Of a stretch of 64,000 bases of DNA, positions 12,302 through 55,702 are shown one piece after another. The stretch is from a virus, in the IMG/VR virus record IMGVR_UViG_3300050821_006672, positions 1 through 64,000 of that record. One strand, given 5' to 3'. A model generated the notes under the pieces. That model saw nothing but the letters and a program-made list of their open reading frames with translations. It ran no database searches and was not told the origin of the DNA. Every line of letters begins with the position of its first letter. The first letter of the stretch is position 1. A program made the translations under genes and the position numbers.

Positions 12302-12615
12302 TTCTGCTCCCCTTGTATCTCGATGCAGTCAAACTCAACAATTTCCATGTCTTCCTTCTTCCGGTGATGCTGCTTTTCAGGGACGGCCCAAGTCCCCTCA
12401 TCTGTACCTTCATAGTTAATATGAGTTTCGTTCTTGAAAATCCCTTGTAGCCAGTTGGACAGGAAGGCCCGCGCTGCCTGCTTGTTGTGGAAGATGCGTG
12501 GCTCGCGTTCGTTAGAGGGTTCCAGCCAAGAGCCGCCGCGTCGCTTACCTGTTTCCAGGCGCGGGATGAATAGGCCCGTTGATTTCTGGCGGACGGCATA
12601 GACTTTCATTATCAC
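12298..12615 (-). CDS. hypothetical protein
   Basis: Coupled ORF. Confidence 0.55.
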   Translation of the reverse strand: MIMKVYAVRQKSTGLFIPRLETGKRRGGSWLEPSNEREPRIFHNKQAARAFLSNWLQGIFKNETHINYEGTDEGTWAVPEKQHHRKKEDMEIVEFDCIEIQGEQK

Positions 12616-14600
12616 CCTTCCGTAAACAGTACTCGTCCGATTGCGGTAATCAATGGTGCCAGCTTATCAGACTGATTGAAGGGCTGTGAGAATGCATCAA
12701 GAATTCCCAACGCATGACAGGCGGCACGATCGGTCTTCGCTCCTTTGGCAACGCTCGCCATGTAGTTAGCCACCACAATGCGGATTGACTCTGGGTTTTC
12801 GCCATCGAGTTGTTCGAGTAGTCCCATTGCCTTCATCCATGATCCCCCCTTGACCAGGAAGCGGCAGAGTTCGATCATGGCATCGGACTGAGAAGCAGTG
12901 TGGAGTAGTTCGCTGGCTTCTTTACGAGACCTGGCGTTTCGACACAACTCGAGGTTGACAAGGAGTTGGCGTGGCGAGCCACGGGCTTCCTTGATGATGG
13001 TATCGCCGACATCTCCAGGGAGTTCCAGGTCCTCAGCTTCGGCAACTTTGTCATACAATTTGCCAAGGTCGGTATTGGGAACATCACGCAGAGTGTAGCT
13101 GGCAGCACGGGTCTTGATTGTATCTGGCACTTTCGATGGTTCGGTTGTGCAGAAGAACCAAAAAGCATGTTCCGGGGGTTTCTCAGTGATCTTCAATAGT
13201 GACTGCCATGCATTTTTCGATAAACTGTGACAGTTGTGTACAATAACATTGGCGACGCTAAATGATGGGTGCTCTTTTATTTCTAAGTCATAGAACTCAA
13301 ATAGCGCTTCACCGTCCAGACTACCGCACGGGAATTGCCCGATATTTGTGAGTTCTTGAAGCGAAGGATGGTCCACCCCAATGACTGTAGTCGCTCGTCC
13401 TTGAGCTTGTCTATTTGGCGTTGTTGTCGAGAGTTGTGTGTTCCACCATCCACCTCGATACCCAATCGCTGCTTCGGAAAACCGATGTCGATTTTGTAAC
13501 AGGATGGCCATCCCTTTAGCCTTCGACCATGCCCAAACGTAACAACATGTTCCAACTGCCCACCAACTAAGGAGTGTAGTAACGTTTGTTCCCGAGTTGG
13601 TCCCTTGCCATTCCCACCGCGTTCGCCTGTCCATATGTGAAGCGTGCCATTGGTATCTTTCACGCGTAGCATCTTTTCTACTGTCGCTTGATTGCGCATT
13701 GGGTTGTTGTGACGCATTCGAATACTGCATCGTTTGGCAATGCCAGCCCACATCTCTGGTTTTTTGTGTTTGCTTCGAAGCACTCCCGCACGTTGATTGT
13801 TTTTTCTTTGCTGGGAGTGAGATCGTCCAACTCGTTTCAAACCACCAAGTTTGGCTCCGCATTTTCGTGAACACGTAGTTACAGGGGATGTTGGCCGCGC
13901 TCGAAAGTATTCTCCACAAATTACGCATTTTCTCTTCAAGCACTCTGGACAGAATATTGATCCACTTTTTTTGCTCGTATACCGGGTCCCACATTGACGA
14001 CAAGTGTTGTGGTATATTGGAGGCGTTAGTGGGTAACCTTTTGGCATGTAAATCCCTCGCGTTGATCCAACCGCCAAATGTCAGAAATGGATGTTCTTGC
14101 GAGGAGATTATATGATGCCCGCTTTCCAGGCGCAATCTAACAATGTGTGATAAAGGAACTAGTCGTTTGCTCACTGATGCGACAGTTTGCTCGCCGTGAG
14201 CGCCTAGTACTTTGTCTCCTGACAGGAGCTGTTCAATGGGAACATCCCCGTTAGGAGTGTTTACTAAGGTGCCTTTAACAAAGCATTCGTCCAAGATGAC
14301 GGCGCGTTTCGTTCCCTGCCCGAATGGTTTGTAACGAAGCATCTCCTGGATTGAGCGCATATCGTCAACGCCAGTACGAGATGCGGCGTCAATCTCGGTG
14401 ATGTTGGCATCGAGACATCCTGCTGTTCGCGCAGATATCCTTGCCAAAGTCGTCTTTCCACATCCCGATGGCCCACAGAAAAGGAAGGTTTGCGCTCCCC
14501 CTCTTAAGATAATGGCTTTCAATGATTTGATAATAGTTGTATGACCAATGACCTCATCAAAGGTTCTAGGTCGATACTTGTCGTGCAGTACCTCTGTCAT
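12612..14600 (-). CDS. dnaX: DnaX-like clamp loader ATPase, intein-containing
   Basis: LHDKYRPRTFDEVIG, GPSGCGKTT, EIDAAS, ILDE|C, LLKITEKPP; ATG 14600 overlaps the upstream stop. Confidence 0.9.
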   Translation of the reverse strand: MTEVLHDKYRPRTFDEVIGHTTIIKSLKAIILRGGAQTFLFCGPSGCGKTTLARISARTAGCLDANITEIDAASRTGVDDMRSIQEMLRYKPFGQGTKRAVILDECFVKGTLVNTPNGDVPIEQLLSGDKVLGAHGEQTVASVSKRLVPLSHIVRLRLESGHHIISSQEHPFLTFGGWINARDLHAKRLPTNASNIPQHLSSMWDPVYEQKKWINILSRVLEEKMRNLWRILSSAANIPCNYVFTKMRSQTWWFETSWTISLPAKKKQSTCGSASKQTQKTRDVGWHCQTMQYSNASQQPNAQSSDSRKDATRERYQWHASHMDRRTRWEWQGTNSGTNVTTLLSWWAVGTCCYVWAWSKAKGMAILLQNRHRFSEAAIGYRGGWWNTQLSTTTPNRQAQGRATTVIGVDHPSLQELTNIGQFPCGSLDGEALFEFYDLEIKEHPSFSVANVIVHNCHSLSKNAWQSLLKITEKPPEHAFWFFCTTEPSKVPDTIKTRAASYTLRDVPNTDLGKLYDKVAEAEDLELPGDVGDTIIKEARGSPRQLLVNLELCRNARSRKEASELLHTASQSDAMIELCRFLVKGGSWMKAMGLLEQLDGENPESIRIVVANYMASVAKGAKTDRAACHALGILDAFSQPFNQSDKLAPLITAIGRVLFTEG
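13233..14285 (-). mobile_element. intein (351 aa) in DnaX, directly after Walker B
   Basis: Starts CFVKGTLVNTPNG (block A), SSQEHPF (B), FYDLEI (F), ends VHN followed by Cys; splicing restores ILDECHSLS. Confidence 0.92.
13283..14047 (-). CDS. DUF559/Vsr-like endonuclease with zinc fingers, overprinted in the +1 frame inside the DnaX intein
   Basis: CRQC, CPEC, CVIC, CSRKC; YKIDIG...IEVDGGTH...DKLKDERLQSLGWTILRF; GAGGGA RBS before ATG 14047. Confidence 0.85.
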   Translation of the reverse strand: MPKGYPLTPPIYHNTCRQCGTRYTSKKSGSIFCPECLKRKCVICGEYFRARPTSPVTTCSRKCGAKLGGLKRVGRSHSQQRKNNQRAGVLRSKHKKPEMWAGIAKRCSIRMRHNNPMRNQATVEKMLRVKDTNGTLHIWTGERGGNGKGPTREQTLLHSLVGGQLEHVVTFGHGRRLKGWPSCYKIDIGFPKQRLGIEVDGGTHNSRQQRQIDKLKDERLQSLGWTILRFKNSQISGNSRAVVWTVKRYLSSMT

Positions 14601-15019
14601 TTCTTTTCCCATGGAAATACTAGCCAAGTATCTTGTTCGACTTTTACAGAGAATGTATCAATGAATTGTGTTTCCGTAGGTTTTGCGTACACCACTGCAT
14701 AATGAGCAGTAAGCACTTTTTGTACGCTTTCTATCGTTTTTCCTGTACTAATAGTGTCATCAACTACTAATACGGGACTAGGCATGAGACGGGGAAACTT
14801 GGTGATGTGAAGAAGACTGCCTCGTTGTTTGTTTTCGTCGTAGCTTTCTATGCATAGGGTTTCAATCATACGAATGTTGAGTTCGTGTGCAATTATTGTG
14901 GCTGGAACCAAGCCCCCTCGGGATACTGCAATAATTGATGCGAAGCCCCGTGGCAGTTGTTTGATGAGTGCTCTGGTGTCCTGATGAAATCGTTCCCAGG
15001 TGATGTTGATGGTATTCAT
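14597..15019 (-). CDS. gpt: xanthine/guanine phosphoribosyltransferase-like
   Basis: AVSRGGLVP, PRPP loop VVDDTISTGKT, C-terminal WLVFPWE. Confidence 0.85.
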   Translation of the reverse strand: MNTINITWERFHQDTRALIKQLPRGFASIIAVSRGGLVPATIIAHELNIRMIETLCIESYDENKQRGSLLHITKFPRLMPSPVLVVDDTISTGKTIESVQKVLTAHYAVVYAKPTETQFIDTFSVKVEQDTWLVFPWEKK

Positions 15020-18000
15020 GATCGCTTATGTCCCCAAATTTCTACGGAACTGAACTTGCCAATCTCGGTCAGGTCACACCAGTTTTCTCCAACTGAGACT
15101 TCCACCCCTAGAGGAACATTTACCCATGGGAACTCTACGCGGGTCATCTCACGTACTACAATTTCCAAGTTCTTGTCGATTTCGTGCTTGGGCCAGATGA
15201 AAGTCAAATCATCATGTATCTCCATATTGGCTTGGAAACGTAATTGTTCATATTCGGACAATCGCGCCATAGCAGAACATACAATTTTCGATTCAAGTGC
15301 TTGGATAGGGCTGTTGATTCTTTGGTTAGGTGAGATTGGTGCACGACGCCTGAAACCGGACAGTCCCGTGATGTACCCTAGTTTGTAGTACATCTTTTCT
15401 AAGTCGTCATGCCACTTTTTGATATCAGGAAACTTACTCCAGAATGTCTCTTGTAGTTTGACGCCGATGTGTTTCGGAACACCCAACCCTCCCGATACAT
15501 TTTCTGCCTGCGCGCCGAAGAACGAGGGAAATACGAACTTGTTCTTCGACTCCTGCCGGAGTTCCTTTGCAAGTTCCTTGTCTTTGAGTGATTTTCCACG
15601 CAACCATTGCGGATACATTTTGGCGAGCCGATACATCCAGTCCGAATGAATGTCATAGTTGTTCCAGAATGCATCTACCAAAGCTTTATCACATGACTCC
15701 ATAGCAACATTACGTGCTTGAATACCTGAGAAATCAACTGTGACAACACGCAAATCCCCTCCCGGCTTAACCTGCTTTCGCAACTTACGGTTAGGCCCAT
15801 GCTTTACTATGTTTTGGCTATTAGGATCATTACTACTCGTTCGCCACGTGCGAGTACTATGCGTGCTAATGTGAGGATGAACGCAGCCATCCGAGTATAA
15901 AGTATCCGAGCCCTTCTTGAAGGGAAGTATATACGTGGAATGCATCTTGTTGGCTTCGCGCCAATCCAAGACCAAGTTTACAAAAGGATGTTTGATCTGT
16001 TTGAGTTCGTTTTCATCCACGCTCTCGACGGGATGATTGAGTATCTTCTCAATGACGAACTTGACATCCTGATTGGCTGATGGTCGAAATTCTGTCTTTT
16101 TTATCCGAGCAAACTTCTTTACGACGTCGAGTTGTGTCAGGTCTTTCTCTATCTTGCTACGACGTTGCGTAAATTCCTTGTCAAACTCGTTAACGACATC
16201 CTGGTTTGCTGGAATGCCTTTCAATTGGGTGAGAACCATCGTTGGGATGCGCCGCAACTGATGCTCGTACACACCCATCAAATCTTCGTCACGCAGACGT
16301 TTACGCTGTGGGAAGTACAAGTAGCGATGGGCTTTGCTATCGAGTGCGTTGTAACGTAGGACTTGGTCTAATGGTTCCTTGTCCAGGTTGTTCTTATCGA
16401 GCTTCCCAAACAACGCTTTTACGTCCAGCCCAAAGTACTGGATGCAAAGGAACTCGAGGCTGTGGCATCCGGGGTTGCCTCCCATACGTTCATCCAGGAT
16501 GTAGGCTTGTGAAAGCGTGTCTTCCCAGGGTTGGGCGCGGAGTACCTTCCTGCCATAGAAATATGCTGACCACTCCATTTCAAAGGAGAGTGAATGTACC
16601 ACCTTCTTACAAGGAGCGGTCAGGAGAAACTCTAGCAGAGTATCTTCTACGCGTTCGATCTGACGATCAGACCAGTCACATTCTGGATGATACAAGGGAA
16701 ATGATGCGGCAACCTCATATCCCGCCATTGCCACTGTGAGTATTTTTGAGGTCTTCTTGTATGGGCGTAATCCTTTTGTTTCGTAGTCATAGCCGACGAT
16801 CTTTTCGTTATGCATCGCCTTGATGAACTTGATTGCGGCATCGGGATTTGTAATGATCTCTACGTCACGTGAGAGGTCCTCGACGGTGAAAACCTTGGGT
16901 TCGGGGAGTTTGTCAACGATGGCAAATGCATTACGCAGATCATTAGCAAATGCGAACTCGATGTCCGAGCCATAGCTGTTTTTATCCCTTGGCTCAAACT
17001 TGCGGGACCGTCCTACGTAGGACGGATGCATCATGGGGAAGAACCAGCAAATGTGATTCCCTACCTTGATGGGAACATGTCTGCCATTCCACTTGGTAAT
17101 GCCTTGCTGCTTGAGCGCCCATTGAAGGGGCACGTTTCCAAAACCGAAGATTGCTTTTGGCTTTGTCTTTTCTACGTCGGACGTAATTGATGGACGGCAG
17201 CACTCCACTTCTACCTGGGTAGGTTCACGGTTCTTGGGTGGTCGAGTGTTGCTTACGACATGATTTTCCGCTACATACCAACCTTCGTCGGTTTCTAAGT
17301 TGTATATAAATCCTTCAAAGGGTTGGGTATCAATATGAATGACATTGTCAAACTGTATAAGAGTGGGGTTAGTTTGTGTCAACTTGAAGAGCAACTCGGA
17401 ACCTCCAAGTTCTTGATTAAGAAAATCCTCCTTTCTAATGGGGTGCGAATGCGTACCCATAGAGAGTCCAGAAATATTGAAGCGGCTAAGCCCTTGTGGA
17501 GACCTCCATCCGTTAAGGAAGTCTGTGATAGGTACGTCGCCGGTGAAAGCACGGAAGAACTCGCTAAAATTTATCATGTCCGCCCGCGTACTGTAAGTAG
17601 TTTTCTCAAACGGAACGGTATTAAAATCAGAAATGTTAGTGAACAGCTGCGTGTTTGGGCAAAGCGAAATCCCAGTGTTATCGATAGGAAACGTCGCTTC
17701 GGTCAGGGTATTAGATTGGGGGCCAATCTCAGAGAGGTTTGTACTCGCGAGGCACGTGCTAGAAGACTTCAACAAACACTTTCTGTTGCCTCTGATATTG
17801 AGCTGCTGTTGATTCCCGAACTTAAGCGGAGAAGCATTCGATTTATCAGACAGTACCCAGTTGGGACTTACAACCTCGACTTCGCCTGTTCCAATATCGC
17901 CGTGGAAATTGAAGTTAGTGTCAACCATCCGTTGGCTATGCCCCACAAGAGATTGCGCTGCAAAAAGCTCATCGAGGCGGGATGGTTTGTTTTGTTCGTG

Positions 18001-18537
18001 TGGATAAATTCCTCCCATCCATTGGTTCCTGCTACCGTAGTTAACTATTTGATCTCCAAGAGAAAGTTGATACGCGAAAAGCCATCCTTGGGATGTAAGT
18101 ATTGGGTGGTGCGGGGTACAGGGGAGTTCGTCTCCAAAACGCGTCTTGACTATTATAAGCTCACCCACGAAGTAGCGGCGGAATAACTTCTTTATTCTGG
18201 ACGGTGTTGTTACTTTTACTGAACCAGGAAAGCAGCGCACTACATTGGTCCATCGAATCTTATCATTCCATTTCTCAGGAATGCGAAAGCGTAGTATCTG
18301 GCCCGTCTTCCCGACAAACTGCTTTCCTTGCTCGTCTTCCGAGGCCCCAGGGGCTTCCCCAATTACTAAAATTGTAGGATGATCGGAACCAGTTGGCTCC
18401 ATGTGTGGATGTTTTAGCCCGCGCTGATGGTTGAGCGGACAGACCGCGCAGCCATGGCGATGAAGGAAATCTACAGATAGGTTTTTGGGAACCAGTGATT
18501 CATTGTTGCGAGCTGGGGACGTTGGAAGGAAACCCAT
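15016..18537 (-). CDS. family A DNA polymerase with N-terminal family-4-like uracil-DNA glycosylase domain, 3'-5' exonuclease and intein
   Basis: CAVC, GEAPG, FVGKTG, HPSY (UDG); YDYET, YNALD (exonuclease); RTSSNDPNSQN, DFSGIQAR, RQESK, IHDD (polymerase). Confidence 0.9.
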   Translation of the reverse strand: MGFLPTSPARNNESLVPKNLSVDFLHRHGCAVCPLNHQRGLKHPHMEPTGSDHPTILVIGEAPGASEDEQGKQFVGKTGQILRFRIPEKWNDKIRWTNVVRCFPGSVKVTTPSRIKKLFRRYFVGELIIVKTRFGDELPCTPHHPILTSQGWLFAYQLSLGDQIVNYGSRNQWMGGIYPHEQNKPSRLDELFAAQSLVGHSQRMVDTNFNFHGDIGTGEVEVVSPNWVLSDKSNASPLKFGNQQQLNIRGNRKCLLKSSSTCLASTNLSEIGPQSNTLTEATFPIDNTGISLCPNTQLFTNISDFNTVPFEKTTYSTRADMINFSEFFRAFTGDVPITDFLNGWRSPQGLSRFNISGLSMGTHSHPIRKEDFLNQELGGSELLFKLTQTNPTLIQFDNVIHIDTQPFEGFIYNLETDEGWYVAENHVVSNTRPPKNREPTQVEVECCRPSITSDVEKTKPKAIFGFGNVPLQWALKQQGITKWNGRHVPIKVGNHICWFFPMMHPSYVGRSRKFEPRDKNSYGSDIEFAFANDLRNAFAIVDKLPEPKVFTVEDLSRDVEIITNPDAAIKFIKAMHNEKIVGYDYETKGLRPYKKTSKILTVAMAGYEVAASFPLYHPECDWSDRQIERVEDTLLEFLLTAPCKKVVHSLSFEMEWSAYFYGRKVLRAQPWEDTLSQAYILDERMGGNPGCHSLEFLCIQYFGLDVKALFGKLDKNNLDKEPLDQVLRYNALDSKAHRYLYFPQRKRLRDEDLMGVYEHQLRRIPTMVLTQLKGIPANQDVVNEFDKEFTQRRSKIEKDLTQLDVVKKFARIKKTEFRPSANQDVKFVIEKILNHPVESVDENELKQIKHPFVNLVLDWREANKMHSTYILPFKKGSDTLYSDGCVHPHISTHSTRTWRTSSNDPNSQNIVKHGPNRKLRKQVKPGGDLRVVTVDFSGIQARNVAMESCDKALVDAFWNNYDIHSDWMYRLAKMYPQWLRGKSLKDKELAKELRQESKNKFVFPSFFGAQAENVSGGLGVPKHIGVKLQETFWSKFPDIKKWHDDLEKMYYKLGYITGLSGFRRRAPISPNQRINSPIQALESKIVCSAMARLSEYEQLRFQANMEIHDDLTFIWPKHEIDKNLEIVVREMTRVEFPWVNVPLGVEVSVGENWCDLTEIGKFSSVEIWGHKRS
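17248..18234 (-). mobile_element. intein (329 aa) in the UDG domain of the polymerase
   Basis: Starts CFPGSVKV, CTPHHPILTSQGW (B), FIYNLET (F), ends VVSN followed by Thr; splicing restores TNVVR-TRPPKNREP. Confidence 0.88.
17335..18186 (+). CDS. HTH-repeat plus DUF559/Vsr-like endonuclease encoded antisense inside the polymerase intein
   Basis: Two HTH repeats (LYKSGVSLCQL, RYVAGESTEELAKIYHV); SDIE...RQYPVGTYNLDFA...IAVEIE...LIEAGWFVLFVW. Confidence 0.8.
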   Translation: MNDIVKLYKSGVSLCQLEEQLGTSKFLIKKILLSNGVRMRTHRESRNIEAAKPLWRPPSVKEVCDRYVAGESTEELAKIYHVRPRTVSSFLKRNGIKIRNVSEQLRVWAKRNPSVIDRKRRFGQGIRLGANLREVCTREARARRLQQTLSVASDIELLLIPELKRRSIRFIRQYPVGTYNLDFACSNIAVEIEVSVNHPLAMPHKRLRCKKLIEAGWFVLFVWINSSHPLVPATVVNYLISKRKLIREKPSLGCKYWVVRGTGEFVSKTRLDYYKLTHEVAAE

Positions 18538-31634: not shown

Positions 31635-33182
31635 TTACTTCCTACCACGTAGAATGGACTTGAGCAGGTCTTCACCGGCCGATAACGCATTGAAGATACG
31701 CTGGTCATAAGTGCCGGCTACTACCAAGTCGTAAATGAATACGCGATCGTGCTGCGAGCCCTGGCGTTCGACGCGTCTACGTGTCTGCTTGCGCATGGAC
31801 GGTGTCACAGGGGATTCGTAAAATATCCCGTACTTGGAAATCTGAATGTTGAGGCCCAACCCCGAGTTGTTCTGCAACAGCATCACGCGACAGGACTGAT
31901 CATTGGCAAAGCGTTTGCGCATCTTGTCATGATCTTTGGTCTTGCCGTAGATGCGTACATGATTGATGCTGCGCTCCGACAATTCACGAGATATCATGTC
32001 GGCCGAGTAGTTGAATTCGTAGAACACGATGATCTTGTGCTCGGGACGAATGCTCTCGATGAGACTCAGCAACATGTCAAGCTTTGGGTGATCCTCGAAC
32101 TCGAACTGTGCTTTGGTGCCTTCATCGTCATCGTAATAACCCAGGTAGCCGGATGAAATCTGTCTCATGCGGAGAAATGCATTCTTCATCAAACGATAGT
32201 CGCCACGCGCATTGAGCAACGCCTGTTCCGTGCGTTCAGCGTAAACGAGAGCATCAACAGGAAGCTTGATTGCTTTCTTGATTTCTACGACTTTGGGCAA
32301 GTCGGCGGCGTTTGCTTCATAGCCCAGGCTACGATTAGCCAGCATGCGATTGAGAGTACCATTCATCTTCTCTTTGAATGTGTAGTCAATTCCTCCCCAG
32401 TAATTGGGTTTGCTAACAAAGAACGTCTCGCGGAATAGTCCTAGGGTCTTCCCTAGTGTCTTGCCCTGATCCACTAGGTACATCTGCGACCAGAGATCAA
32501 TGGGATCGTCAAATGGGGTACCTGAGAGCGCGAAGACGATCTCGGCCTTCTTTGATATTTGTCGACAGATACGAAAAGGCAGCTTCCCACGGGTCTTCAC
32601 CATGGTGGAGGCTTCTTCAAGGATGAGACCGTTCACGACCGAAAGAAGCTCTTTCAACTTGCCCTTGTCGGGAATGAGTCCATTCCTGTCTTTTTTATTC
32701 TTGCGTTTGATTACTCCTAACGTGCAGACCATGTGGAGCAGACCAGCGTAGGTCGTAATGGCAATCATGTAATTGCCATCCAGCAGCGCACGCCACTTCT
32801 CTTTTGACGATCCTTCCAGAATGCAGTAAGTGGTTTTTGGGGAATGCTTCTCGATCTCGAGTGCCCACTCGGTCACAACGGACTTTGTGGGAGCAAGGAC
32901 CAACGCACACTTGAGTGTCTTCAGCTTTTTGAAATATCGAACCAACGCTACAGACAAAAGCGTCTTGCCGGTACCCGTGTCACACATGTAGTATAAGCGT
33001 TTGAGTTTCGCGCCAGCGATGAAACACACTTTCTGGTGATGGTACAGCTTGAACCAGATTGGAGGCTGTACGGGCAGCCGATCCATTCGATTGTCGAGCT
33101 GCTCGTCGGAAAGGGCTTTGTATGCATTGCAATCGCGCAGAGGCCTTTGTAGGAACGTTTTGATTGTTCTGCGGGGGATCAT
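31635..33182 (-). CDS. SNF2-like superfamily 2 helicase
   Basis: YHHQ, DTGTGKT, LSGTP, LWSQ, GLGLN; atypical motif II (LEEAS). Confidence 0.85.
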   Translation of the reverse strand: MIPRRTIKTFLQRPLRDCNAYKALSDEQLDNRMDRLPVQPPIWFKLYHHQKVCFIAGAKLKRLYYMCDTGTGKTLLSVALVRYFKKLKTLKCALVLAPTKSVVTEWALEIEKHSPKTTYCILEGSSKEKWRALLDGNYMIAITTYAGLLHMVCTLGVIKRKNKKDRNGLIPDKGKLKELLSVVNGLILEEASTMVKTRGKLPFRICRQISKKAEIVFALSGTPFDDPIDLWSQMYLVDQGKTLGKTLGLFRETFFVSKPNYWGGIDYTFKEKMNGTLNRMLANRSLGYEANAADLPKVVEIKKAIKLPVDALVYAERTEQALLNARGDYRLMKNAFLRMRQISSGYLGYYDDDEGTKAQFEFEDHPKLDMLLSLIESIRPEHKIIVFYEFNYSADMISRELSERSINHVRIYGKTKDHDKMRKRFANDQSCRVMLLQNNSGLGLNIQISKYGIFYESPVTPSMRKQTRRRVERQGSQHDRVFIYDLVVAGTYDQRIFNALSAGEDLLKSILRGRK

Positions 33183-33206
33183 AGGCCTGGAATGGCAAAA
33201 CCGTGT

Positions 33207-50241: not shown

Positions 50242-50898
50242 ATGGCTCTGATATTTAGAGGAGGGGGTTTTATTCCTCCAGCAATTGCGGGTGGCCTTGT
50301 TGTATTAGATGCTGTCGGTACTGTAACTCAGCATACAACAACTTATACTGGAATGACAGTTGGTTCTGGGTTAGTTGGTGGTGCACTGGTAATTGTGATA
50401 AATACTGCGACAGCTCAAACGGTTACGTCTGTCCCTGTGTGGGGTTCACAGACAATGACGTTGATAGGCTCCGTAAATCTTGGTAATGTTGGGGTAACTG
50501 GCGCAACAACATACATGTATGGATTATTAAATCCCCAGTCTGGTAATCAAACTGTGACGTATGCATTAACTGGTAACAACGCTAGTGTTTGTGGCATCTC
50601 ATTCAGCGGAGTCAATTCGGTATTTGGAACAGCGTTCCAACACTATAATTCTAACGGTGCTATTGCGTCGTCAATTTCTACGTCCATTGTGAGTGCTACC
50701 AACCATATGGTTTTGGGTGTGGCTGGAGACCCGCAAAACAGCATCAACACCATTTCTGGTACGCAAAAATGGCTTAGCAATGCTTTCATTGTTGATACTG
50801 CAGGCTGTATCAATCCGGGTGCGGCCAGTGTCAATGTTTCAGCAACATTCAGTGCGGCAGATCAAGTCGGCGTAGCTGGTGTGGACATAAGCTTCTAG
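50242..50898 (+). CDS. putative virion protein
   Basis: G/T/S/V-rich. Confidence 0.55.
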   Translation: MALIFRGGGFIPPAIAGGLVVLDAVGTVTQHTTTYTGMTVGSGLVGGALVIVINTATAQTVTSVPVWGSQTMTLIGSVNLGNVGVTGATTYMYGLLNPQSGNQTVTYALTGNNASVCGISFSGVNSVFGTAFQHYNSNGAIASSISTSIVSATNHMVLGVAGDPQNSINTISGTQKWLSNAFIVDTAGCINPGAASVNVSATFSAADQVGVAGVDISF

Positions 50899-50899
50899 G

Positions 50900-53800
50900 A
50901 TGTCACTCGACGCTGAAAATGTTTCAGGCCAAGGTGGCGGTTCCAATCTTGTGTATAGGAACCTGCGTTCTTCTGCCTTTGGGGATTTTCCATCCTATAA
51001 CACAACTGACAGGCCGGCGCGTAGTTCTGCCGATTGGTTGCATATGGATGGGTTACTATTGTGTTATCCTTACGACCTCACTGCGATGGGGACGTGGGGA
51101 ACTAACATATCGACAGCGAAGGGTTTTCGTTATGTATGGTTCATAGCCCCTGACCATGATTCTGAATATGCGTGGGGCCTTGACGCGGAAATGATTTATC
51201 GTGGGTTCAGTAATGACCCAACAATACTGCCTGATCCCTCGACGCTTGTTCCTATCGTTTCAGTGCTCGGTACCACGCAGACGGGCACGGCTGCTAGTTT
51301 TACGGCGTCTATTGCTGGCGATGGAGTAACATTGAATGTATCTGGAATCTCGTCGGGCATTATTGCTTTAGGCTATCAGATTGCTGGTACAGGTATTACC
51401 GGATCACCCCATATTGTGTCTATGGGAACTGGGATGGGAGGTACGGGTACTTACGTCTTATCGGTTAACCAGGGTGGAGCTATTGGTAGCGAGGGGATGA
51501 CGGCCACTGTGACAGGCAGTGGGCTATTTAATGGCCACTTTTTTCCGTGGTTTGTGTTCAATGCAGATACCAATCAGGGTCATCTCTATCTCCAATGCAT
51601 CGTCACGTCCGGCATCAATGATAACGCTTGGAACGAAGGCTGTTGGACGACAACAGATATTGATAACTACACTTTCCAAGGCATTGCGTTTACTAACAGT
51701 CTAAACCCCGGTTTCGGCTTTGCCTCGGGGATGACGGTGTATCGTCTCGGCGTCAATAATTGGATAGCTTTTGGGTCGGCGGACACGGGTTCTAACGACG
51801 GCAAAAAAGGCTACTGGACATCAACAGATGGCCTGCGCTTTACGTTCCAGGGGCAGATAACCGGCAAGGTTGGGTCTAGTGTTTATACTATCCAGGGGGC
51901 GCCTAAGTTCACGGTCGGGGGGCAGGATTATGTTCTGACGTGGGAGGACGCGAGGGGCAATGCATGGAGTAGTTCGACGACTTATGCTATTGGAGATCGC
52001 GCAAATATTATAACTTACAGCGGACCTCGCAACGAGCATTATTACGAGTTTCAGACTTACCAGTCGTTGACTAACGGTAATCTGAATAACAACCCATCTA
52101 CTAGTCCGGCGAATTGGGTCACTGTGACTGATGGTGGGCAGTTTCTCGCGCAAGTCGTAATCGATTCACATGGCAACGTTTTAGCCTCTCCTGCTCCGGT
52201 TAGACAGTCGGCTATGTATACGGGAACGTTTCCTGGCCCTACTTACGTCAGCTATGTTAGCGGCATCATGGAGAGTGGTTTTTGCGTTGCGCTCGTTCTT
52301 CATGGATTTTACCCAGCACTGAATCCAGCGACACTTCCTGCGCCCTATATTCAGGGCGGTGGGTTGAGTGAAGAATACCTAGACGTATATCCGGTTATTG
52401 TGGACGCAACAGCAGCACCTAACGCTGCTCCATTTGGAGTTAGGTGTTCATGCGCTGGTGGCAACATCCTGATCCGTTGGTTTGATATCAGCCCTGGACA
52501 CAATTACCGCGTCAAGCGTGCGACGAGTCTTGGGGGCACCTACGCGAACCTCGCTGACGTGACAGTTGGACAATACATTGATACGACTGGGACGCTTGGG
52601 ACGGTTTACTATTATAAGGTCGTGACGCTCAATGGTGGTGTTGAAAAAGATTCGCGTACTGTCAGCACTTATTGCGGTCAGTATGACAGCTTCACTTGCG
52701 CTCATGTGACGCGCGCTCTGGCGGCTGGTGCGGATGCGACAACGATATCTGAGTGGCGCATTGCCAAGGTGGTGCGGTGGCTCATTGAGCATGATAAGCT
52801 CAAGCACCTCCGTGTGGGGACGGCTGCTTGGATGGGCGTCGTTCAGGATGGCAGTCACAACATCAGCAGGATATTCGATCTCGGCACTACTCTCTTGCCC
52901 CGGATGGGCGACCTAACACCAACAACGGCTACGGGGACGACTTACAGTGCGACAGCGATCAATTCAGTAACACCGGGATGGATTAACGCCAACAATAACT
53001 CATTTGGAATGTACGGTAATTTTGGCAAAGGGACAGGATCGCAGGGGCGTTTGAATAATATCCGTAAGTGGGATGCCTGCACGTTCTTTGCCAGCTACCA
53101 AAAGTCAAATGCTAATCAGACAACATTCGTGTCCACTGGGGAATTTAACAGCGGCTTGACGCTTCGAGTCGCAGCAGGTTCACCCGGCACGCCGCAATTC
53201 CTGATGGCAGACAAGGTGACGAGCCACACTGCAACGGGGCCGGCGTTGTCTGGCGCAACACCCCACATCATTGCCGGCACTTACGACGGGAATGGTACGG
53301 CCAAGTGCTATACAGAAGGTGTGGCCGGCACTCCTGTTACTGGGATTGCAGACAATTCGGTATTGCTTGGGCAGACAGGTGTGGCGGTTCTTAATTTTTT
53401 CTTAGGGACTGGGACTACGAGCCTAAAGTTTGGTGCCAATTCCTCTCCCCCAGGGCCAGGGGGAACCTATGTATTTGAGAACAACGAAGCTCAGTATAAC
53501 GGGCATGCGAATTTTGGATTCGACGTACTGTTTACCGATCCCGAGATTGCTTCGTTCACCCAACTACTTCGCGACGATACGACGGCCACTATAGTTGACG
53601 ATATTAAGGCCACCTACGGCGCGAAGGGTGATGGCCAGAAACTGCTGTCTACCTGGACTACTAGCGGGATGACGCTGACGTGCAATGGCACCAGCCCATT
53701 TGTTTCCGGCGACACTGGCAAGTATTTTGCGTTGAGTGGTGCTGGCACTGCTGGCGGCATATTAAGTGGAACGCTGACTTTTGTTAGTTCCACTCAGGTA

Positions 53801-55702
53801 ACAATGAGCGTCAGCGCTATCACGCCTTTGACTTCTTCGTCGCAGACATTAGAATGGGGAACGAACGATAGCGCCACTTTTGCTGCTTTTAATACTGCGA
53901 GGGCGGGCAGCACATCTCCGGTTGAATTGGATATTCCTGCTGGGCGGTATTGCTTCATGGGGGCTGGGTTGGGGATTGGTTTTACTTGGAACGTAAAAAA
54001 TCTTCGCGTTGTTGGTAGCGGAACTGCGGTGTTCACGGATATGTCCGGAACAGGGAGAGGATGGTTCTTGGGCGGTTGCGCGGGAGGTCAATCGAATAAT
54101 AACACGAGTCAGGCTCGTACCAGTACCGCGAACGCCGGTAGTTCGATGATCACCCTGAAGAACTCCTCCGATGCCTCGCGGTTCTCTCCGCCATGTTGGG
54201 CATTGATGACCGGATTAGATATACAAGGATTCGGATATCCGAGTAACCAGCAATTTTATGAGTGGGTATACGTTACGTCGATTGTTGGCGCGGCTGTTAA
54301 TCTGCAGTCGCCGCTCGTCAACACTTACAAAGATACGTGGCCGGTATTCAACGCCGGCAATGCTAGTAATGTAGACTGTGGGGGTCCTGCTACGCTCTAC
54401 GCGATCGAGGCGGGGTGGGATTGTGACCATGAATACGTCAACATCCAGCAAGAATCGACTGGGCAAATAAATAGCATCGGCCGTAACGTCACTTATACTG
54501 GAGGTGGTTCCATCGCCGGCAACAGTGCGGGATGTTGTGTCTACCCTTCGAGAAATAAGGTGTGGACGTGCAATGGCGTGGACACGACGGCTGGTAGTTC
54601 TGAGATCGATAAGTTGATTGCCAACGTGGTCGTGAATGGTGGTCATTGGAGTAGACCAAAAACCCAGAGTCCATCCCCAGATAGTATGACGTTTGAGAAC
54701 GTTGTCATGAACAGCAATATGCTGGGGTCACCGAAGAATACGAGTCTCAAGGGCTGCTACCTCAACGGCGGCGCGTCATTTGGGCCAACTGCTTTTGGCT
54801 ACGGAACGTCTGTTTATTCCGAGGCGTGTTCTTTTGCTAATGTGGGTGCCAGTAGCGGTTTTATCGGCGGAGTAGCTGAGAGCGACGTGTTGGGGGCTGG
54901 GGCGTACCAATTCATTGGCGGCGGGATCATCAAGAGACTTAAGTCTGGTGGATCAGGATCGCCCCCTCAATGGGGAACTTCTAATGGAATTTGTTTCATC
55001 GGCACTAATTCTCTGACCACAGAATATATATTTCAAGTCACAGATATTTACGAGGATGGGACTTATATTTACATTCGAACTACACTGGACGGATTTCCGA
55101 CTATTCCTGGCCCCACGTGGAACATTCACACTCACCCGTGCCCGCAGCTTACTATGGTTGCGTGCGTAGGCTGCGTTGATGCAATCGATATGTCGGGGGC
55201 ACCGACTGCTAGAGCACCGATATACTCATACACCAAGCGGACGTTCTCAAACTGGGCTGCTCAGCAGCAGAGCACATCTTGGATTTGGGGAAGGTTGGTA
55301 TCGTATACGCTTGGCGGATATCCAGGAGATACACCTTATACGGGTGTGTTAGGTACGCTAAAGCTGGAGCCTGCAGCACAGTTGGGAGCGGCCTGCGTTT
55401 CTCCTACGGGAGGAGCCTCTATATTCTATGATCCAGTGTTAAACATGATAGTTGGAGGGCAGCGTATTCTACTACCTGGGTCTGTTTCTGCACAATCAGG
55501 CGATGTCCTTGGCGCAGCTCCAGGAGCATTATGGTTTACCAAGAGCGTGTCTCCATTTCTAGACAGTAGCATTTCGGGAGAATCCTCTTCTGTTTGGCCA
55601 ACGATTACTATTGAGCTAGTAACTGATCAGACTGTTATTCAAGTTCCTTACCAAACTAATCTACCTAGCAGCCAGCGTGGTTTTTTCCGTCATGTCGTCT
55701 AA
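50900..55702 (+). CDS. large multidomain fibre/spike-like protein (1600 aa)
   Basis: CBM-like WSSSTTYAIGD, FN3-like YRVKRATS...YYYKV, LamG-like HIIAGTYDG, beta-helix-start-like YGAKGDG. Confidence 0.65.
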   Translation: MSLDAENVSGQGGGSNLVYRNLRSSAFGDFPSYNTTDRPARSSADWLHMDGLLLCYPYDLTAMGTWGTNISTAKGFRYVWFIAPDHDSEYAWGLDAEMIYRGFSNDPTILPDPSTLVPIVSVLGTTQTGTAASFTASIAGDGVTLNVSGISSGIIALGYQIAGTGITGSPHIVSMGTGMGGTGTYVLSVNQGGAIGSEGMTATVTGSGLFNGHFFPWFVFNADTNQGHLYLQCIVTSGINDNAWNEGCWTTTDIDNYTFQGIAFTNSLNPGFGFASGMTVYRLGVNNWIAFGSADTGSNDGKKGYWTSTDGLRFTFQGQITGKVGSSVYTIQGAPKFTVGGQDYVLTWEDARGNAWSSSTTYAIGDRANIITYSGPRNEHYYEFQTYQSLTNGNLNNNPSTSPANWVTVTDGGQFLAQVVIDSHGNVLASPAPVRQSAMYTGTFPGPTYVSYVSGIMESGFCVALVLHGFYPALNPATLPAPYIQGGGLSEEYLDVYPVIVDATAAPNAAPFGVRCSCAGGNILIRWFDISPGHNYRVKRATSLGGTYANLADVTVGQYIDTTGTLGTVYYYKVVTLNGGVEKDSRTVSTYCGQYDSFTCAHVTRALAAGADATTISEWRIAKVVRWLIEHDKLKHLRVGTAAWMGVVQDGSHNISRIFDLGTTLLPRMGDLTPTTATGTTYSATAINSVTPGWINANNNSFGMYGNFGKGTGSQGRLNNIRKWDACTFFASYQKSNANQTTFVSTGEFNSGLTLRVAAGSPGTPQFLMADKVTSHTATGPALSGATPHIIAGTYDGNGTAKCYTEGVAGTPVTGIADNSVLLGQTGVAVLNFFLGTGTTSLKFGANSSPPGPGGTYVFENNEAQYNGHANFGFDVLFTDPEIASFTQLLRDDTTATIVDDIKATYGAKGDGQKLLSTWTTSGMTLTCNGTSPFVSGDTGKYFALSGAGTAGGILSGTLTFVSSTQVTMSVSAITPLTSSSQTLEWGTNDSATFAAFNTARAGSTSPVELDIPAGRYCFMGAGLGIGFTWNVKNLRVVGSGTAVFTDMSGTGRGWFLGGCAGGQSNNNTSQARTSTANAGSSMITLKNSSDASRFSPPCWALMTGLDIQGFGYPSNQQFYEWVYVTSIVGAAVNLQSPLVNTYKDTWPVFNAGNASNVDCGGPATLYAIEAGWDCDHEYVNIQQESTGQINSIGRNVTYTGGGSIAGNSAGCCVYPSRNKVWTCNGVDTTAGSSEIDKLIANVVVNGGHWSRPKTQSPSPDSMTFENVVMNSNMLGSPKNTSLKGCYLNGGASFGPTAFGYGTSVYSEACSFANVGASSGFIGGVAESDVLGAGAYQFIGGGIIKRLKSGGSGSPPQWGTSNGICFIGTNSLTTEYIFQVTDIYEDGTYIYIRTTLDGFPTIPGPTWNIHTHPCPQLTMVACVGCVDAIDMSGAPTARAPIYSYTKRTFSNWAAQQQSTSWIWGRLVSYTLGGYPGDTPYTGVLGTLKLEPAAQLGAACVSPTGGASIFYDPVLNMIVGGQRILLPGSVSAQSGDVLGAAPGALWFTKSVSPFLDSSISGESSSVWPTITIELVTDQTVIQVPYQTNLPSSQRGFFRHVV

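Follow-up and report, generated by a model that had tools for sequence, protein, structure and literature searches.

A Vsr/DUF559-type nuclease gene overprinted in the +1 frame of a predicted clamp-loader intein of a tailed phage

Results

Clamp-loader gene, intein and overprinted nuclease

The first 64,000 nucleotides of the IMG/VR virus record IMGVR_UViG_3300050821_006672 (hereafter the window, meaning this whole stretch of DNA) carry a DnaX-like clamp-loader gene on the minus strand. This gene is interrupted by an intein, and the centre of the intein is read a second time, on the same strand and in the +1 frame, as the gene of a Vsr/DUF559-type nuclease. The coordinates of the individual features are compiled in Table 1. 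The 671-aa host open reading frame (ORF), for which TTG 14627 is the first listed candidate start, encodes a P-loop protein according to Pfam (DNA_pol3_delta2, 3e-12, in addition to AAA and Rad17 P-loop matches).

Table 1. Features of the clamp-loader locus in window coordinates (SD, Shine-Dalgarno; pLDDT, predicted local distance difference test)
Feature	Position	Strand	Description	Support
DnaX-like clamp-loader precursor ORF	12612..14627	minus	exteins and intein, 671 aa	Pfam
N-extein	14286..14627	minus	114 aa; Walker A GPSGCGKT; C-terminal end is Walker B ILDE	
Predicted intein	13233..14285	minus	351 aa; Cys1, block B SSQEH, blocks F/G YDLEIKEHPSFSVANVIVHN, followed by the +1 Cys	
C-extein	12612..13232	minus	206 aa and stop; begins CHSLS	
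HINT N-lobe	14031..14285	minus	intein residues 1-85	AlphaFold2 pLDDT 91-97 (residues 1-80); aligns with mini-inteins
Intein-frame spacer	13386..14030	minus	intein residues ~86-300; stop-free, amino acids not conserved	
HINT C-lobe	13233..13385	minus	intein residues 301-351 (blocks F, G); terminal HN|C	pLDDT 67-95
Putative homing-endonuclease gene	13283..14047	minus	+1 frame; 254 aa and TAG (13283-13285); ATG 14047	
Cys-pair (zinc-ribbon-like) region	13859..14014	minus	nuclease residues 12-63, N-terminal	short beta-hairpins at residues 12-49, pLDDT ~95
Vsr/DUF559/EDxHD-like catalytic domain (alpha/beta)	13286..13615	minus	nuclease residues 145-254	
SD-like motif	14053..14058	minus	GAGGGA, 5 nt upstream of ATG 14047	
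Predicted RNA hairpin (tentative)	14051..14109	minus	SD region paired with the upstream segment UAAUCUCCUCGC	

The intein is located between the Walker-B DE and the following CH, with the junctions ILDE|CFVKGT upstream and VIVHN|CHSLS downstream (the bar marks the splice junction), extending from the Cys codon at 14285 to the Asn codon at 13235-13233. Alignment of the N-extein to 52 other clamp loaders stops exactly at residue 114. Within the insert, Cys1 is invariant and the block B histidine (His65 in SSQEH) nearly invariant among 53 relatives, while the C-terminal VHN|C is present in nearly all relatives. The Pfam family Hint_2 matched with 32.8 bits at a cut-off of 28.4. A phmmer search of the intein against the PDB gave no match, and a fold comparison was used in its place. 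The two ends of the intein model jointly match mini-inteins with Z 16-18 and a root-mean-square deviation (rmsd) of 1.6-2.0 over ~125 residues, among them gp41-1 (Z 16.9), the Mtu RecA splicing domain, and the Spirulina DnaX mini-intein. By its nucleophile, block B, C-terminal HN|C, HINT fold, and insertion site, the insert classifies as a class-1 intein which, judged from these features, would be capable of splicing.

The intein-frame model is confident solely at residues 1-85 and 301-351. In between, a lower-confidence helix (residues 93-150) is followed by disorder, with a pLDDT below 50 for most of residues ~150-296. As modelled, the clamp-loader frame is thus a complete HINT domain interrupted by an unstructured read-through of ~215 residues.

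Across the whole intein, the third frame contains 19 stops and the +1 frame nine, leaving in the latter one long open stretch that contains the ORF from ATG 14047 to TAG 13283, whose stop is 16 codons upstream of the terminal Asn of the intein. The 254-aa product of this ORF matches Pfam DUF559 (E 9.5e-11, 42 bits, cut-off 20.6) and contains the motifs YKIDIG, IEVDGGTH, and LGWTILRF as well as four Cys pairs. Its structure, predicted on the basis of an alignment of 71 relatives, reached a mean pLDDT of 92.6. Toward the N-terminus, C41 and C44 of the Cys-pair region are invariant in an 8-sequence alignment and C59 and C63 nearly invariant in the 71-sequence alignment; profile matches of this region to FCS, MYM, and YacG zinc fingers are weak. 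A helical domain follows at residues 61-132. Neither the Pfam and profile searches nor the model revealed a helix-turn-helix (HTH) or NUMOD match at the N-terminus, which is occupied by the Cys-pair beta-hairpins and helices.

The catalytic domain resembles most closely the DUF559 protein 3hrl (VIA-align Z 13.0, rmsd 1.2 over 85 residues), followed by the homing endonuclease I-Bth0305I (3r3p; Z 11.6, rmsd 2.4, 89 residues) and Vsr (1cw0; Z 10.2). The profile of the nuclease family likewise matched 3hrl (1e-12) and 3r3p (2e-4). Foldseek returned nothing at E <= 0.001 for the nuclease, with 3r3p ranking second at E 9e-3. Residues invariant over the 71 nuclease sequences include GNG (145-147), D187, E198, D200, H204, D213, and K216. 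The invariant His falls on H213, the mutated position of the 3r3p crystal construct. Considering the equal Asp-His spacing of 17 residues (D196-H213 in I-Bth0305I; Taylor et al. 2011, PMC3239194) and the range of the structural alignment, D187 probably represents the catalytic Asp of the EDxHD type. Profile and predicted fold agree in assigning the +1 ORF to the Vsr/DUF559-type nucleases, and the product would be expected to cleave DNA.

Recurrence in phage genomes and assemblies

Searches with the window locus alone remained empty: none of 50,697 phage records matched the whole gene by blastn, and a single-protein scan of IMG/VR gave no relatives. An alignment-based scan of IMG/VR did reach relatives, yielding at least 409 confirmed nuclease loci. 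For the family analyses, 80 of these were kept by nuclease similarity alone, 71 of them being unique loci. In all 80, a nuclease ORF of 200-350 codons is enclosed by a longer one (650-1370 codons) on the same strand and in the identical +1 register; in most loci, 16 or 21 codons separate the nuclease stop from the terminal Asn. Clamp loaders with both exteins matched and the intein exactly at the site of the window account for 52 loci, and two more are truncated; the exteins of these relatives are 25-50% identical to those of the window. The remaining kept loci are SF2 (ResIII/DEAD) or SNF2 helicases split at DE|CH, the junctions being nearly always DE|CF...VHN|CH in clamp loaders and helicases alike.

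The arrangement also occurs in cultured phages. A tblastn search of the phage records detected nuclease homologues of ~30% identity in the Vibrio phages CP-T1, 1.088.O, and 159E43-1b, in each case +1 to a contiguous DE|CF...VHN|CH intein with a noise-like centre. The respective GenBank records (L001, which is gp10 of CP-T1, L002, and L003) label the host gene “putative helicase”, “P-loop NTPase”, and “DNA helicase”. They annotate neither the intein nor the +1 nuclease ORF, so that the anticipated blindness of standard annotation toward this gene holds for these records, in which the helicase coding sequence stands alone.

Bacterial and archaeal assemblies contributed at least 489 loci. Of 34 fuller-length matches among them, 32 are overprinted likewise, and the weaker matches (L120-L165) represent ordinary stand-alone cellular DUF559 proteins. 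A subgroup from bacterial metagenome-assembled genomes (MAGs; L090, L093, L095, L100, L103, L104, L108, L110, and L114) carries an overprinted intein ending in ...LVHN|SSILK or ...LVHN|SGILK. With its +1 Ser and a different C-extein, this subgroup indicates that the nuclease family occupies at least one further host gene or site.

Selection on the two reading frames

Over the nuclease overlap of the window, the intein frame contains no stop, and 14 occur in the third frame. When the nuclease ORF was shuffled 20,000 times using synonymous codons, the intein frame acquired on average ~12.5 stops, with a minimum of four and not a single shuffle at zero; shuffling the order of the nuclease codons led to the same outcome. 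This difference between zero observed and ~12.5 expected stops shows that the intein frame is kept open by selection. Extension to the 71 unique loci gave zero host-frame stops versus 1004 expected, next to 1746 stops in the third frame.

The way in which these stops are avoided can be read from the codons. Each host-frame codon joins the last base of one nuclease codon to the first two of the next. Across the 71 loci, none of the 6161 nuclease codons preceding AA, AG, or GA ends in T, compared with 30.6% elsewhere. Host-frame stops are consequently avoided by the mere absence of T-ending nuclease codons in front of these dinucleotides, which makes the cost to the nuclease purely synonymous.

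To compare conservation by frame, 2415 pairwise comparisons were taken at 30-40% nuclease identity. The nuclease products averaged 35% amino-acid identity, whereas translations of the host frame and of the non-coding third frame averaged 20% and 21%, respectively; mismatches between relatives were most frequent at nuclease codon position 3. As the host frame is no more conserved than the third frame, the centre of the intein frame is constrained merely to stay open. Folded protein in both frames is confined to the margins of the overlap, with ~6 codons at its 5' end and ~35 at its 3' end. At the 3' end, the +1 reading of intein residues 301-335 is the nuclease C-terminus, and the last strand and helices of the nuclease coincide with HINT strands. 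Over the remaining ~215 overlap codons, the intein frame is a stop-free spacer. The double coding is real, and it is maintained by selection in more than 100 other sequences.

These data largely bear out a previous interpretation of the stretch made without database searches (the sequence-only reading). Its coordinates for a 351-aa intein with intact splicing blocks (14285-13233) hold, its ends forming the full HINT fold, and the central part, described there as similar to off-frame sequence, behaves as such in both model confidence and conservation. The 254-aa +1 ORF with the start, stop, and upstream GAGGGA that had been named was recovered unchanged, its proposed Vsr/DUF559-like nature is supported by profile, fold, and conservation among homologues, and the demand that the intein frame stay stop-free agrees with the shuffling results.

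Occupied, empty, and decayed alleles

Clamp loaders were searched with a C-extein query built from a 5-sequence alignment, a 36-sequence alignment being too diverse, and the best 80 relatives were analyzed. These closest relatives share 39-58% identity. In 75 of the 80 the site is intein-free, many of them displaying a native DECH. Two loci (L215 and L216) contain a 178-aa mini-intein at the same DE|CH clamp-loader site (L215:1967-2500), its N-lobe being 41% identical to that of the window. In its +1 frame, a 76-codon relic of the nuclease C-terminus (L215 2205-2432, E 4e-12) is found behind several stops, lacking the Asp-bearing strand and everything upstream of it. This mini-intein represents a deletion derivative of the full element.

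Free-standing nuclease copies of 213 aa were located on Oscillospiraceae and Clostridia MAG contigs (L116:2884-3525 and L112:1564-2205), in both cases directly upstream of intein-less SF2 helicases with the Walker B motif DECHH or DESHH; in L116 the two genes share 26 nt, the nuclease 3' end reaching into the helicase start. Since empty site, free nuclease, full composite, and decayed mini-intein are all observed, the set fits a scenario in which a free-standing endonuclease gene invaded a mini-intein and the usual homing cycle ensued. Such an invasion has already been proposed (PMC2677866; bioRxiv 10.1101/2025.01.02.630785).

Putative expression of the nuclease

In 42 of 66 loci (64%), an ATG upstream of the first CxxC is preceded by an SD-like motif, compared with 16% of internal control ATGs, in line with the role as ribosome-binding site that the sequence-only reading had given to GAGGGA. 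The start ATG of several loci lies just 3 nt past the preceding +1-frame stop, leaving no room for a frameshift from the host frame there, and the free-standing copies share the conserved N-terminus of the overprinted ones. The window ATG itself is preceded by 33 nt of open +1 frame (from 14080). The enrichment of SD-like ATGs, the missing room for a shift in several loci, and the lack of a promoter-like site together favour internal initiation on the clamp-loader mRNA as the likely route to the nuclease.

The SD region of the window is predicted to be paired with a probability of 0.80. Within the family, the mean SD pairing of 0.59 exceeds that of control positions (0.46, p 1.6e-4), a comparison in which the G-richness of the SD is uncorrected. 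A hairpin masking the SD is therefore put forward only as a tentative idea.

Discussion

A composite selfish element

We consider it highly probable that the locus represents a composite selfish element residing in a tailed-phage clamp-loader gene, in which a class-1 intein is combined with an autonomous Vsr/EDxHD-type homing endonuclease gene in the +1 frame. Ribosomes translating the clamp-loader frame would produce the N-extein, the HINT N-lobe, a disordered spacer of ~215 residues, the HINT C-lobe, and the C-extein; the two HINT lobes would then associate and splice out in cis to leave an intact clamp loader. Other ribosomes would start internally at ATG 14047 behind GAGGGA and synthesize the 254-aa nuclease. 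This nuclease is expected to cut intein-free DE|CH alleles of co-infecting phages, whereupon repair would copy the whole element into them. Splicing, internal initiation, DNA cleavage, and homing are what we infer from sequence, models, and comparison.

Several observations weigh against this picture. A promoter and terminator scan around the nuclease ORF gave counts equal to those of shuffled sequence, with no promoter-like site above chance upstream. The hairpin around the SD of the window, with a z-score of -0.93, is no better than its shuffles. A disordered insert of 215 residues might slow or lower splicing. Furthermore, the nuclease of the window is a divergent member of its family with at most ~46% identity to any relative found, so that recent homing of this copy can at most be supposed. 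Finally, some locus pairs combine a nuclease identity of 60-65% with an extein identity of 32-39%, and extein and nuclease identities correlate moderately (r 0.48); as different proteins evolve at different rates, this contrast is only suggestive of horizontal transfer between diverged hosts.

A more far-reaching proposal, which we regard as speculative and rather doubtful in its entirety, takes the +1 overprint as the ancestral and stable state of a large and as yet unpublished intein family, with hundreds of members in phages, inserted at the Walker-B DE|CH of clamp loaders and of SF2/SNF2 helicases. Its stability would follow from the synonymous-only cost, and translation of the nuclease might additionally be gated by clamp-loader ribosomes that melt the SD-masking hairpin.

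Alternative explanations

Among the alternatives, we assign a low probability to a nuclease that does not, or no longer does, act in homing and is kept for marker exclusion or a host-directed or defence role while the intein is inherited vertically. The window copy is indeed without close relatives, the moderate extein/nuclease correlation partly fits vertical descent, and the DUF559 fold is common in ordinary cellular proteins such as the stand-alone ones found in the assemblies. Such a role is, however, difficult to reconcile with a nuclease found almost solely within inteins, at one conserved site and in three host gene families. In addition, the closest exteins are intein-free, the mini-intein is accompanied by a decayed nuclease, and, among characterised proteins, the structurally closest one has been proven to be a homing endonuclease (PMC3239194). 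A programmed +1 ribosomal frameshift, generating a fusion of N-extein, HINT N-lobe, and nuclease in place of internal initiation, seems to us still less probable. It would agree with the 33 nt of open +1 frame in front of the window ATG and with the lack of a dedicated promoter, whereas the enrichment of SD-like ATGs at the ORF start, the loci in which the ATG follows a +1 stop by 3 nt, and the common N-terminus at which the free-standing copies begin argue for independent initiation.

Practically no weight is given to an assembly artefact, in which two indels would hide an in-frame endonuclease, or to a functionally split (“fractured”) gene. Random off-frame sequence is expected to contain ~12 stops where none is seen, and the same register recurs in 80 of 80 independent loci as well as in the three cultured phages. 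Sequencing error was rejected on these grounds, and the pair of compensating frameshift errors that the sequence-only reading had named as a threat to its own proposal accounts neither for the stop-free frame nor for this recurrence. A split intein was likewise rejected, as the host frame is continuous in the window and in 80 of 80 relatives. It shows no stop followed by a restart, and no ATG, GTG, or TTG is present before block F in the intein frame of the window.

Relation to known systems

The composite intein thus favoured has published counterparts. According to the account given in bioRxiv 10.64898/2026.09.14.751524, an out-of-frame LAGLIDADG endonuclease of a cyanobacterial dnaX intein goes back to Gorbalenya 1998. 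As described in this preprint (Phillips, DeSimone, Gogarten), the cyanobacterial intein shares with the window the kind of host gene (clamp-loader/DnaX), the contiguous intein with a disordered low-confidence centre, and an overlapping endonuclease ORF on the same strand. In both systems the endonuclease is under purifying selection with a relaxed host frame, and full, mini, and empty alleles coexist. The cyanobacterial case differs in being cellular and in carrying a LAGLIDADG enzyme in a +2 ORF, whereas the phage element of the window encodes, in the +1 frame, a Vsr/DUF559 enzyme whose N-terminal modules are of the Cys-pair and helical kind. Unlike the cyanobacterial case, the element type of the window is also found in helicases.

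In actinobacteriophages (Gosselin, Arsenault, Gogarten, bioRxiv 10.1101/2025.01.02.630785), antisense LAGLIDADG, antisense Vsr-like, and frame-3 endonuclease VII-like intein genes were reported. As in the window, the endonuclease is a separate overlapping ORF missed by annotation, and the in-frame centre has no recognisable structure. The Vsr-like genes of that set are antisense, however, and its sole out-of-frame case on the same strand is the endonuclease VII-like gene in frame 3. The hosts comprise polymerase, capsid, terminase, and thymidylate synthase genes, with no same-strand +1 Vsr-like gene at DE|CH among them.

A third point of comparison are the fractured genes (Dassa et al. 2009, PMC2677866), i.e., split inteins whose halves flank a free-standing endonuclease gene of the Vsr-like or GIY-YIG type. 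They likewise reside in DNA-metabolism genes of phages, a Vsr-like endonuclease is situated between HINT blocks B and F, its 3' end running into the beginning of the C-terminal intein part, and the gp41-1 intein matched by the HINT model of the window (Z 16.9) belongs to this set. In fractured genes the host is divided into two ORFs, the overlap covers 6-69 bp, and splicing occurs in trans, whereas the host of the window reads through 765 nt (stop included) and is predicted to splice in cis.

Concerning the enzyme, I-Bth0305I is the prototype of the EDxHD homing endonucleases and is encoded in a group I intron (PMC3239194). It shares the Vsr-like fold with the nuclease of the window and differs by its N-terminal NUMOD/HTH DNA-binding repeats, in place of which the latter shows Cys-pair ribbons together with a helical domain and the invariant motif GGNG. 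A methylase insertion of phage ShiLan also hides an HNH endonuclease, again out of frame (Arsenault et al. 2025, PMC11855218). That insertion has no splicing domain and stays in the protein, whereas the insert of the window contains a complete HINT domain that is predicted to remove it.

Out-of-frame and antisense intein endonucleases have therefore already been published, and the novelty implied by the sequence-only reading does not stand: the layout is a variant of the kind described in the 2025-2026 preprints. In the literature searched, we found no description of phage clamp loaders and helicases whose contiguous DE|CH inteins carry a Vsr/DUF559 endonuclease in the +1 frame of the same strand.

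Significance

Endonucleases out of frame with their intein are called rare in recent preprints; in one large family of phage inteins, they are the rule. The need to avoid just T-ending codons before AA, AG, and GA offers a codon-level reason for the persistence of the overlap. One gene family displays every stage expected of mini-intein invasion and decay, which bears on the question of how inteins gain endonucleases. In practical terms, hundreds of nuclease genes would be absent from phage annotations, and such inteins run the risk of being misread as decaying. The predicted tolerance of the HINT domain for an unstructured insert of ~215 residues and a compact Vsr-type enzyme with a novel predicted DNA-binding module could also be of interest to builders of protein-engineering tools.

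Further features of the phage genome

The window belongs to a complete virus record of 109,475 bp with direct terminal repeats and encodes a terminase, a portal, a gp32-like protein, an SbcC-like ATPase, and an intein-free SNF2 helicase. The latter is an SNF2/DEAD-type helicase of 523 aa (31635-33206, minus); elsewhere, SNF2 helicases do harbour relatives of the intein family.

A second intein of 329 aa (C...VVSN|T; 17245-18234, minus) resides in a UDG-PolA fusion gene (15016-18537, minus). Antisense across nearly all of it runs a 287-aa ORF (17323-18186, plus) with HTH-like motifs and a DUF559 match (E 6e-7). The codons TTA, CTA, and TCA, which would be stops in the polymerase frame, are used zero times in this ORF versus 10.1 expected (P 1.3e-5). 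The PolA intein fits the antisense Vsr-like type of bioRxiv 10.1101/2025.01.02.630785. DUF559 matches in the genome number exactly two, the clamp-loader nuclease and this antisense ORF.

Other nested ORFs of the window are spans of 150-216 codons antisense to long genes. Pfam scans covering most of the long ORFs that hold such spans gave no intein or HINT match, the nested ORFs themselves and the ORF at 50891-55702 lying outside the scan.

Between the clamp-loader and the polymerase genes, a 140-aa ORF (14597-15019, minus) overlaps the clamp-loader start by ~30 nt. By its VLVVDD.ISTG motif, it presumably resembles a purine phosphoribosyltransferase.

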